Positions 37,968-41,893 of a stretch of DNA of 50,229 nt are shown piece by piece; position 1 is the first letter of the stretch, and every line of letters starts with the position of its first letter. Origin of the DNA: a virus (lineage: Duplodnaviria > Heunggongvirae > Uroviricota > Caudoviricetes); the IMG/VR virus record IMGVR_UViG_2718217713_000003, one strand, 5' to 3'. The translations under genes and the position numbers were made by a program. The notes under the pieces are model-generated. The model was given only the letters and a program-made list of their open reading frames with translations, did no database searches and was not told the origin of the DNA.

Positions 37968-40631
37968 ATGGGTAAAGGCAGCAGTAAGGGGCATACCCCG
38001 CGCGAAGCGAAGGACAACCTGAAGTCCACGCAGCTGCTGAGTGTGATCGATGCCATCAGCGAAGGGCCGGTTGAAGGTCCGGTGGATGGATTAAAAAGCG
38101 TGCTGCTGAACAGTACGCCGGTGCTGGACAGTGAGGGGAATACCAATATATCCGGCGTCACGGTGGTGTTCCGGGCCGGTGAGCAGGAGCAGACACCGCC
38201 GGAGGGATTTGAATCCTCCGGCTCCGAGACGGTGCTGGGTACGGAAGTGAAGTACGACACGCCGATTACCCGGACCATCACGTCGGCAAACATCGACCGT
38301 CTGCGCTTTACCTTCGGTGTGCAGGCACTGGTGGAAACCACCTCAAAGGGGGACCGGAATCCGTCGGAAGTCCGCCTGCTGGTTCAGATACAGCGTAATG
38401 GTGGCTGGGTGACGGAAAAAGACATCACCATTAAAGGCAAAACCACCTCGCAGTATCTGGCCTCGGTGGTGGTGGGTAACCTGCCGCCGCGCCCGTTCAA
38501 TATCCGGATGCGCAGGATGACGCCGGACAGCACCACAGACCAGCTGCAGAACAAAACGCTCTGGTCGTCATACACCGAAATCATCGATGTGAAACAGTGC
38601 TACCCGAACACGGCACTGGTCGGCGTACAGGTGGATTCGGAGCAGTTCGGCAGCCAGCAGGTGAGCCGTAATTATCATCTGCGCGGGCGTATTCTGCAGG
38701 TGCCGTCGAACTATAACCCGCAGACTCGGCAATACAGCGGTATCTGGGACGGAACGTTTAAGCCAGCATACAGCAATAACATGGCCTGGTGTCTGTGGGA
38801 TATGCTGACCCATCCACGCTACGGCATGGGGAAACGTCTTGGTGCGGCGGATGTGGACAAATGGGCGCTGTATGTCATCGGCCAGTACTGCGACCAGTCA
38901 GTGCCGGACGGCTTTGGCGGCACGGAGCCGCGCATCACCTGTAATGCGTACCTGACCACACAGCGCAAGGCGTGGGATGTGCTCAGTGATTTCTGCTCGG
39001 CGATGCGCTGTATGCCGGTATGGAACGGGCAGACGCTGACGTTCGTGCAGGACCGACCGTCGGATAAGGTGTGGACCTATAACCGCAGTAATGTGGTGAT
39101 GCCGGATGATGGCGCGCCGTTCCGCTACAGCTTCAGCGCCCTGAAGGACCGCCATAATGCCGTTGAGGTGAACTGGATTGACCCGGACAACGGCTGGGAG
39201 ACGGCGACAGAGCTTGTTGAAGATACGCAGGCCATTGCCCGTTACGGTCGTAATGTCACGAAGATGGATGCCTTTGGCTGTACCAGCCGGGGGCAGGCAC
39301 ACCGCGCCGGGCTGTGGCTGATTAAAACGGAACTGCTGGAGACGCAGACCGTGGACTTCAGCGTGGGTGCGGAAGGGCTTCGCCATGTGCCGGGCGATGT
39401 CATTGAAATCTGCGATGATGACTATGCGGGGATCAGCACCGGCGGGCGCGTGCTGGCGGTGAACAGCCAGACCCGGACGCTGACGCTCGACCGTGAAATC
39501 ACGCTGCCATCCTCCGGTACCACGCTGATAAGCCTGGTTGACGGAAGTGGCAATCCGGTCAGCGTGGAGGTCCAGTCCGTCACCGACGGCGTGAAGGTAA
39601 AAGTGAGCCGTGTTCCTGACGGCGTTGCCGGATACAGCGTATGGGGGCTGAAGCTGCCGACGCTGCGCCAGCGCCTGTTCCGCTGCGTGAGTATCCGTGA
39701 GAACGACGACGGCACGTATGCCATCACCGCCGTGCAGCATGTACCGGAAAAAGAAGCTATCGTGGATAACGGGGCGCACTTTGACGGCGACCAGAGCGGC
39801 ACGGTGAATGGTGTCACGCCGCCAGCAGTGCAGCACCTGACTGCCGAAGTCACCGCAGACAGCGGGGAGTATCAGGTACTGGCCCGCTGGGACACGCCGA
39901 AGGTGGTGAAGGGCGTGAGTTTCATGCTTCGCCTGACCGTGGCAGCGGATGACGGCAGTGAGCGGCTGGTCAGCACGGCCCGGACGACGGAAACCACTTA
40001 CCGCTTCACACAACTGGCTCTGGGGAACTACAGGCTGACAGTCCGGGCAGTAAATGCGTGGGGGCAGCAGGGCGATCCGGCGTCGGTATCGTTCCGGATT
40101 GCCGCACCGGCAGCGCCGTCGCGGATTGAGCTGACGCCGGGCTATTTTCAGATAACCGCCACGCCGCATCTTGCGGTTTATGATCCGACGGTACAGTTTG
40201 AGTTCTGGTTCTCGGAAAAGCGGATTGCGGATATCAGGCAGGTTGAAACCACAGCACGCTATCTTGGCACGGCGCTGTACTGGATAGCCGCCAGTATCAA
40301 TATCAGGCCGGGCCATAATTATTATTTTTACGTTCGCAGTGTGAACACCGTTGGCAAATCGGCATTCGTGGAGGCTGTTGGTCAGCCGAGTGATGACGCA
40401 TCCGGCTATCTGGATTTTTTCAAAGGCGAGATAGGGAAAACCCATCTGGCTCAGGAGCTGTGGACGCAGATTGATAACGGTCAGCTTGCGCCTGACCTGG
40501 CTGAAATCAGGACATCCATTACGGATGTCAGCAATGAAATCACACAGACCGTCAATAAGAAACTGGAAGACCAGAGTGCAGCGATCCAGCAGATACAGAA
40601 GGTTCAGGTTGATACAAATAATAATCTGAAC
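37968..40631 (+). pseudogene. J: Tail tip host-specificity protein J, N-terminal portion (interrupted by IS insertion)
   Basis: [34 protein letters not shown]... matches lambda gpJ. Homology ends at ...VDTNNNLN (40631). The ORF then reads into the IS and stops at 40670. Confidence 0.9.
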
Positions 40632-40639
40632 TGTAGTGG

Positions 40640-41557
40640 TCAAGTAATATTGGCCACGGTTTTACAGTAAAAATGGTATCTGTTCTCTGACTCTTCCGGC
40701 GCCAGCCCACCGTTATAATGGTGAGGTCTGACGCTGTTGTAGTAGTTCAATATGTAATCATTAATTTGCTGCCGGGCCTCGTCCTTGCCTGCGTAACCAT
40801 TCGTTGGCACCCATTCTGTTTTCAGACTGCGGAAGAAGCGTTCCATGGGGCTGTTATCCCAGCAGTTTCCCCGCCGACTGACGCTTTGATTTATTCTGCA
40901 ACGCCAGAGAAGTTGTTGATATTTAAGGCCTGTATACTGGCTTCCCTGGTCGCTATGGAACACGACATCCCGGGGTTGGCCACGCGTCTCATAGGCCATC
41001 CGCAGGGCACTGCTTATCAGTGCGGTATCGGCATGCGCTGACAGACTCCAGCCGATAACCCTGCGGGCAAAAAGATCCATAACAACCGCCAGATAGCACC
41101 AGCGATTTCCTGCCCAGAGATACGTAATATCTCCACACCATACCCGGTCTGGCTCCGGTACTGCGAACTGACGCTCAAGCAGATTCGGCAGGCTGGTATG
41201 CTCCTGACGGGCATTTTTATACTGATGTTTTCCGGGCTGACAACTGCTCAGGTTCAGATATTTCATCAGACGTCCGGCACGGTAACGGCTCATCGGGACG
41301 CCGTTTTGAGTCAGCATTTCAGCCAGAGTGCGCGCGCCCGCAGAGCCCCGACTTTGGTTCCACGCCCGGCGTATTTCGCTGCACAACCTGACTCGTGCCG
41401 GATTAACCGTATCGCGTCGTTTTCGCCAGTACCGGTAACTGCTGCGGTGTATTTCCAGAGCAGAACACAGGCTGACAACCGTGTGGCTGTCACTTAGTCT
41501 GGCGGCTATCGTGAACCGTTCAGCGAGTCGGACATTAAGAGCGCGGTAGCCTTTTTT
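40640..41557 (-). CDS. IS3-family transposase OrfB (DDE catalytic domain), expressed as an OrfAB fusion by -1 frameshift
   Basis: The -1 frame is open from the A6G site through ...[32 protein letters not shown]...HSDQGSQYT...[14 protein letters not shown]. The ORF track shows only the portion after the first alternative start. Confidence 0.8.
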
Positions 41558-41817
41558 AATATCGTATTTTGTTCCTCCAGACGGCGAACTTGCTTTTCCA
41601 GCTCGCGGATACGTTGCTGGTCTGGAGTAATGGGTGTGGCAGAGGGCGTAATACCCTGGCGCTCTCGCCTGAGCTGGCGTACCCAGCTCTCAAGCGTGGT
41701 TGAACCGACATTCATCGCTTCACTGGCCTGTCGATATGAGTAGCCCTTATCAACAATCAGCTGTGCACATTCCAGCCTGAACTCAGGGGTGAAGGTTCGT
41801 TTGGTTTTCTTGTTCAT
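41506..41817 (-). CDS. IS3-family transposase OrfA (HTH / leucine zipper)
   Basis: [55 protein letters not shown]...[18 protein letters not shown] resembles IS911 OrfA. The A AAA AAG slippery site is at 41551-41557. Confidence 0.85.
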
Positions 41818-41893
41818 TAAGTCACCTGTTTTGTGTTGTGGTGAGAATATCACCTTTCATCAGGTGGCCAAATTTAGTGTGCCACTACAGAAC

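Follow-up and report, generated by a model that had tools for sequence, protein, structure and literature searches.

The tail tip gene J of a lambdoid prophage in the 50,229-bp viral sequence IMGVR_UViG_2718217713_000003 (IMG/VR; the whole of this stretch is called the window below) is split by an insertion sequence (IS) of the IS3 family. The best explanation, to which a probability of about 95% is given, is that a copy of an IS3-family element common in enterobacteria, one still competent for transposition, was inserted recently into codon 888/889 of J in the lineage of Escherichia coli strains C10 and C11. Both are strains from cattle. The window is identical to the E. coli C11 chromosome (NZ_CP010133.1) from position 4863203, as compared over the first 50,000 of the 50,229 bases, and C10 and C11 are 100% identical across the 25 kb tested at the prophage locus. 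The insertion of an IS3-family element in a prophage J gene is an ordinary event and is already in public annotation. RefSeq describes the same structure, with both halves of J as pseudogenes, under the labels ‘host specificity protein J (missing C-terminus)’, ‘IS3 family transposase, programmed frameshift’ (WP_198646305.1) and ‘phage tail tip domain-containing protein (missing N-terminus)’, so the IS-split J was already known.

Structure of the insertion and its effect on J

The junctions were inspected between positions 40400 and 42100. On the left, the J coding sequence ends with ...AATAATCTGAAC and is followed by the IS sequence TGTAGTGGTCAAG... About 1.26 kb further on, the IS ends with ...GTGTGCCACTACA and J resumes with GAACAGCATGTGG... 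The IS itself starts with TGTAGTGG and ends with CCACTACA, and thus has TG...CA ends. All the features listed for this element in a preliminary description of the sequence were found where it had placed them (Table 1), among them the imperfect terminal inverted repeats of 26 bp and the GAAC duplicated at both flanks. The element carries its transposase genes on the minus strand, a point absent from that description.

The uninterrupted state of the gene was then reconstructed. Joining 37968–40631 to 41894–42712, which removes the IS and one GAAC, gives a 3483-nt open reading frame (ORF) encoding a J protein of 1160 amino acids (aa) with no internal stop, and the protein reads ...NNNLN/SMWAVKL... 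across the insertion point (slash). The in-frame restoration of J announced in the preliminary description was thus reproduced. A precisely restored site would read CTGAACAGC. Uninterrupted J genes of other E. coli strains read ...CTGAACAGCATG... across the same point. In strain CFSAN061769, the empty site has one GAAC in the single sequence ...AATCTGAACAGCATGTGG... and the protein junction is contiguous. When 200 bp from each flank of the IS were aligned to this strain, both matched at 100% identity and overlapped by exactly 4 bp, so the 4-bp duplication is real. An 800-bp in silico empty-site query matched uninterrupted gpJ genes in a single piece; 126 records were at least 99% identical to it, and 3574 records covered at least 80% of its length. 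The 3′ J fragment aligned without gaps to intact J genes at 98.7% identity. The two halves of J are therefore contiguous in thousands of uninterrupted J genes. The preliminary description had named a J homologue with non-contiguous fragments as a refutation, and its reading withstands this comparison.

Table 1. Positions in the window of the element, of the two parts of J and of other damaged genes of the prophage
Feature	Position	Strand	Remarks
J, 5′ part (codons 1–888)	37968–40631	+	ORF list; RefSeq pseudogene
Target-site duplication GAAC, left copy	40628–40631		Sequence and empty-site comparison
IS3-family insertion sequence, 1258 bp	40632–41889	Transposase on minus	Exact insertion relative to the empty site
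Terminal inverted repeat IRR, transposase-distal, TGTAGTGGTCAAGTAATATTGGCCAC	40632–40657		20/26 positions pair with IRL
orfB part of OrfAB	40640–41557	−	−1 frame open over 41689→40640, where its stop lies
Slippery heptamer A AAA AAG	41557→41551	−	xxA AAA AAG register
orfA, 103 aa	41817→41506	−	Helix-turn-helix and four-heptad leucine zipper; Pfam HTH_Tnp_1, E = 8.8e-13
Terminal inverted repeat IRL, transposase-proximal, ...GTGGCCAAATTTAGTGTGCCACTACA	41864–41889		20/26 positions pair with IRR
Target-site duplication GAAC, right copy	41890–41893		Sequence and empty-site comparison
J, 3′ part (codons 889–1160)	41894–42712	+	Most of the tail-tip fibre, plus the receptor-binding domain at the C-terminus
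Frameshifted methyltransferase and two further genes with stops or frameshifts	8509–9852		RefSeq annotation
ISEsa1 (IS1202-like) transposase fragment, frameshifted rzpQ and truncated remnant of tail-fibre-assembly gene tfa	Among 10896–11558, 19476–19973 and 46797–46922		RefSeq annotation

Pfam domains of the restored J were, in order, PF24801, PF13550, PF24421, PF24489, PF09327 (residues 872–1000) and PF12421 (residues 1036–1160). The domain series of a lambda-type J is complete: FNIII-A, Phage-tail_3, two Ig_J, the tail-tip fibre and the C-terminal receptor-binding domain (RBD). The break after residue 888 falls at the start of the PF09327 tail-tip fibre domain and upstream of the PF12421 RBD. 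The IS does therefore separate the C-terminal receptor-binding region from the rest of the protein, as had been noted earlier. The account of the upstream piece needed a correction: the ORF at 37968–40670 comprises 888 residues of J and then 12 residues encoded by the IS before its stop at 40668–40670. The gpJ made in these strains would be truncated to this product, the distal fibre and RBD being left without a start, and loss of gpJ function is predicted. Because of this truncation, particles of the C10/C11 prophage should not be able to recognize a host. Within the IS, a plus-strand frame of 307 aa starts with a GTG at 41789 and continues into the 3′ part of J (41789–42712); this GTG is the sole in-frame start for the distal piece. 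Translation of a C-terminal J fragment from this codon was considered and rejected. The GTG has no usable Shine–Dalgarno spacing, and the frame is probably a mechanical ORF.

The restored J was compared with two J proteins of known structure. It is nearly identical to the J of phage lambda (PDB 8iyk) over residues 1–836, and it matches 8iyk_J over residues 1–836 and 866–1159. Over its last ~195 aa, from residue ~966 on, it differs by one substitution from the ‘A8 gpJ 713’ chimera (PDB 9wca/9wcb). Residues ~837–965 are distinct from lambda J as well as from the A8 construct, a mosaic arrangement. The J gene of the window differs in being split by the IS. The A8 gpJ chimera retargets lambda particles to OmpC and delivers DNA via OmpC variants (PMC11338833). 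Given the near-identity of the RBD to that of A8 gpJ, the receptor specificity lost in C10 and C11 is probably for OmpC rather than LamB.

Transposase genes and family assignment

IS3-family elements are about 1.2–1.55 kb long and have two partly overlapping ORFs, with orfB in the −1 frame. An A6G-type −1 frameshift produces OrfAB, which has a DD(35)E motif with a K or R seven residues after the E. Their ends are TG...CA and their target duplications are 3–5 bp long. In the element of the window, an AGGTGA Shine–Dalgarno sequence lies upstream of the orfA ATG. The leucine-zipper-like C-terminus ascribed to OrfA is confirmed by leucines L73, L80, L87 and L94, which are in heptad register. The proposed slippery site is present in the correct register, with an ATT codon of the orfB frame just upstream, and the orfB frame is open from this site, as had been described. 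A predicted −1 shift at A AAA AAG joins the two overlapping frames into a continuous OrfAB of 392 aa, which would be the transposase. The frameshift point follows the third heptad: the first three heptads are common to OrfA and OrfAB, and the fourth leucine is supplied separately by either protein. The catalytic residues of OrfAB are D230, D290 and E326, with 35 residues between D290 and E326, and K333 is found seven residues after the glutamate. Pfam matches on the transposase were HTH_Tnp_1, HTH_21, rve (E = 5.3e-27) and rve_3. The NCBIfam equivalog model NF033516 (transpos_IS3) gave 358.2 bits for a cutoff of 160, and positions 1–368 of its 369 positions were covered. Length, ORF layout, DDE domain, curated model, inverted repeats and short duplication all place the element in the IS3 family. 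The DD(35)E residues, frameshift site, inverted repeats and target-site duplication are all intact, in agreement with the preliminary description of an intact element.

A frameshift-stimulating RNA was considered but not adopted: no Rfam frameshift element was found in the IS, and the hairpins in generic minimum free energy folds of the sequence downstream of the slippery heptamer are at most candidates. The only Rfam match was to the model RF01387 (‘isrC Hfq binding RNA’), which matched positions 41699–41821 on the minus strand over its full 123 nt, with 150 bits for a gathering score of 39. This match covers the ribosome-binding region and the first ~40 codons of orfA. IsrC is a Salmonella island small RNA (PMC2330248). 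The isrC family appears to have been derived from, or seeded with, remnants of the IS group to which the element of the window belongs.

Distribution, age and reversibility

The IS was searched in 5426 complete E. coli genomes. It matched 2416 of them, a copy at least 99% identical was present in 938 records, and copies at this level were also found on 306 plasmid records. Byte-identical copies of the 1258 bp are located in C11 itself (2228759–2230016), in JML285, LR-51, KE48, N12 and TK3896, and on four plasmids of sheep isolates. The copy-number survey of the C11 genome gave three places, including the identical copy near fdhE. In KE48, the identical copy is inserted in a major facilitator superfamily transporter gene. 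Target duplications of 3 bp flank the IS in AH01, CP53, JML285, 2012EL-2448 and the related, ISEc31-annotated copy of RM12579, and KE48 provides a second unambiguous duplication of 4 bp. These independent insertions with 3-bp or 4-bp duplications confirm the ends of the element. No obvious shared motif was found across the seven insertion sites.

The same IS (99.8–99.9% identity) has entered J independently at two other positions, in AH01 (4081–5338 of the extracted locus) and CP53 (3339–4596 of the extracted locus), one of which lies upstream of the C11 site by only 62 bp. At the same level of identity, it is present in gene T of 2012EL-2448 and in the head-tail joining gene of E2863, in related prophages of unrelated strains. 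All four J insertions have the same orientation; an orientation bias was rejected because the ranking of the search favours same-strand joins.

Among the 5426 genomes, the exact insertion in J was found only in C10 and C11, and the nearest prophages elsewhere (~98% identity) have an intact gpJ. The preliminary description had called the insertion probably recent. A recent insertion, by an element that would be active, is supported by this restriction to two strains identical over 25 kb, by the undamaged J halves and by the absence of private mutations from the IS. Its arrival would have followed the copy-out-paste-in circle pathway typical of the family, in which the two ends abut in a circular intermediate. 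In a review, IS3-family elements are described as moving by copy-out-paste-in, the donor copy staying in place.

Because the donor copy is left behind, transposition alone does not restore J. The reversibility suggested in the preliminary description would require precise excision between the two 4-bp repeats, which would restore J exactly since the IS and both repeats are intact. Spontaneous excision by slippage between repeats as short as 4 bp is very rare. A known route combines the excision enhancer IEE with an active transposase. According to a preprint, IEE (ECs1305) and an active transposase give ~1e5-fold more precise excision of IS629/IS1203v (bioRxiv 10.1101/2023.06.07.543989, citing PMID 21224843), and in the review IEE is also said to act on IS1- and IS30-family elements. 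The insertion could then be a reversible switch, a subpopulation regaining an infectious prophage through IEE-assisted, transposase-dependent excision.

The presence of iee was assessed by counting the matched places per genome after segments of iee had been appended to the C11-specific 3′ J fragment. The fragment alone matched one place in C11 and one in C10. With iee nt 701–1300 appended, two places were matched in both strains and the six control genomes were unchanged. With nt 1–600 and the reverse complement of nt 1762–2361 (E ≤ 1e-250), three places were matched in both strains, with no gain in the controls. By this indirect test, C10 and C11 contain segments matching the 5′, middle and 3′ parts of iee with high identity. 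In a direct search with iee, C11 was not among the 60 tied 100% matches listed. When the serX-side island of C11 was scanned for iee, only a truncated remnant with 83% identity was found. This remnant of an iee-like primase gene (~350 bp; 80193–80466 in 78862–80466) belongs to a SpLE1-like island (integrase at 87631–88833) and adjoins a frameshifted IS3-family transposase gene of a different IS; the high-identity segments are detected elsewhere in the genome.

Despite the iee-like DNA, the reversible switch is considered unlikely. The only iee-like gene located in C11 is the truncated remnant, and no excision product was seen in any of the 5426 genomes. No empty-site allele had a 100% identical J, the best identities being 99.5% for the 800-bp junction query and 98.7% for the 3′ J fragment. 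A restored J might not give a viable phage, given the other pseudogenes of the prophage, and no selection for regaining J is evident. An extension of this idea is very unlikely: in an IEE-positive host, infectivity would be switched on and off stochastically by excision restoring an OmpC-targeting J in rare cells, and the recurrence of IS insertions among tail genes of related prophages (J for AH01 and CP53, T for a Shiga toxin-producing E. coli, the head-tail joining gene for E2863) would reflect a reversible way to ‘ground’ prophages.

The defective state of the Qin site in K-12 and the several pseudogenes of the window prophage would suit an old, inert relic, i.e. a fixed pseudogenizing scar that has lost all mobility within a cryptic prophage in decay. 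This is highly improbable, since copies of the IS at unrelated loci, in other strains and on plasmids show 0 differences from it over 1258 nt, all its coding and terminal features are intact, the J halves are undamaged (98.7–100% identity to intact J genes, no gaps) and the insertion is common to only two near-identical genomes. Neither the same J insertion in diverged lineages nor private mutations of the IS copy were seen in the comparison of E. coli genomes. The placement of a repeated IS in J by the assembler is hardly credible: the IS is present at three places in C11 and repeats can mislead assemblers, but the target duplication is exact and of a length that this IS generates, J is broken at a single point with nothing lost, C10 and C11 are separately deposited complete genomes with the same structure, and analogous J insertions are found in AH01 and CP53.

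The recent insertion of a competent copy is preferred. Several points weigh against it or its consequences. Transposase expression, frameshifting and transposition are predictions from the nucleotide sequence. A 4-bp duplication is the minority outcome, found in two of the seven insertions with a target duplication, the other five having 3 bp. Two copies have no duplication, those of the fdhE side of C11 and of E2863; some copies have therefore undergone rearrangement since they inserted. The fdhE-side copy adjoins a truncated IS110-family transposase gene, which suggests rearrangement or deletion after insertion. Finally, the other lesions of the prophage may block phage production in addition to the split in J.

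Prophage context and comparison with known systems

The prophage is lambdoid, full-length and Qin-like. It occupies the Qin site, inserted in ydfJ, according to the RefSeq annotation of window positions 1–50229. Its gene order is int, xis, exo, dicB, dicA/C, relBE, hokD, cspB/F/I, lysis genes, nohA/terminase, head and tail genes, J, lom, stf, pinQ, ydfK and truncated ydfJ. The Qin site of K-12 holds a defective prophage remnant. The window prophage has kept the K-12 Qin cargo dicB, dicA/C, relBE, hokD, cspB/F/I, gnsB, pinQ and ydfK. Alongside int/xis, it also has the full set of lambda-like head and tail genes, a module lost from K-12. The insertion explains why J is a pseudogene in the Qin-like prophage of C10 and C11, and means little beyond correct annotation. 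It predicts that induced particles would have no receptor-binding tip and adds one more case of IS elements disabling structural genes of prophages.

The closest named relative among annotated elements was ISEc31, as assigned by the annotation program PGAP between J and lom in E. coli O55:H7 RM12579. It has the same 1258 bp, orfA/orfB layout and A AAA AAG motif, and its ends are equal to those of the window IS except for two substitutions in the inverted repeats; the duplication is 3 bp there. Measured against this PGAP-annotated ‘ISEc31 family’ copy, the window IS has 92.6% nucleotide identity (~7% divergence) and 94.9% aa identity for OrfAB. The ISfinder threshold for isoforms is ~95% nucleotide or 98% aa identity. 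RefSeq and PLSDB annotations name the element only ‘IS3 family transposase’, and the literature found on ISEc31 consisted of resistome surveys only.

IS911 of Shigella dysenteriae is the mechanistic model of the IS3 family. Its OrfA has a helix-turn-helix and a four-heptad zipper, and the −1 frameshift at A AAA AAG, which takes place inside this zipper, gives OrfA and OrfAB different last heptads. In the orfB frame, an AUU precedes the slippery site, the ends are TG...CA, duplications are 3–4 bp and transposition proceeds by the copy-out-paste-in circle. The sequence-level features of IS911 are all present in the window IS. The two elements are distinct, and presumably about half of the residues of the window OrfA are common with that of IS911.

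IS629/IS1203v insertions in prophage genes of O157 strains (e.g. stx2::IS1203v) are likewise cases of an IS3-family element inactivating a gene of a lambdoid prophage in bovine-associated E. coli. The two systems share iee-like DNA, an intact transposase and a target-site duplication, all of which IEE-assisted precise excision requires, whereas the IS and the target gene are different and no excised allele was seen in the genomes compared with C10 and C11. With an intact IS, perfect 4-bp repeats and an easily scored gene, C11 offers a clean natural substrate for the study of IEE-dependent excision of an IS3-family element besides IS629.

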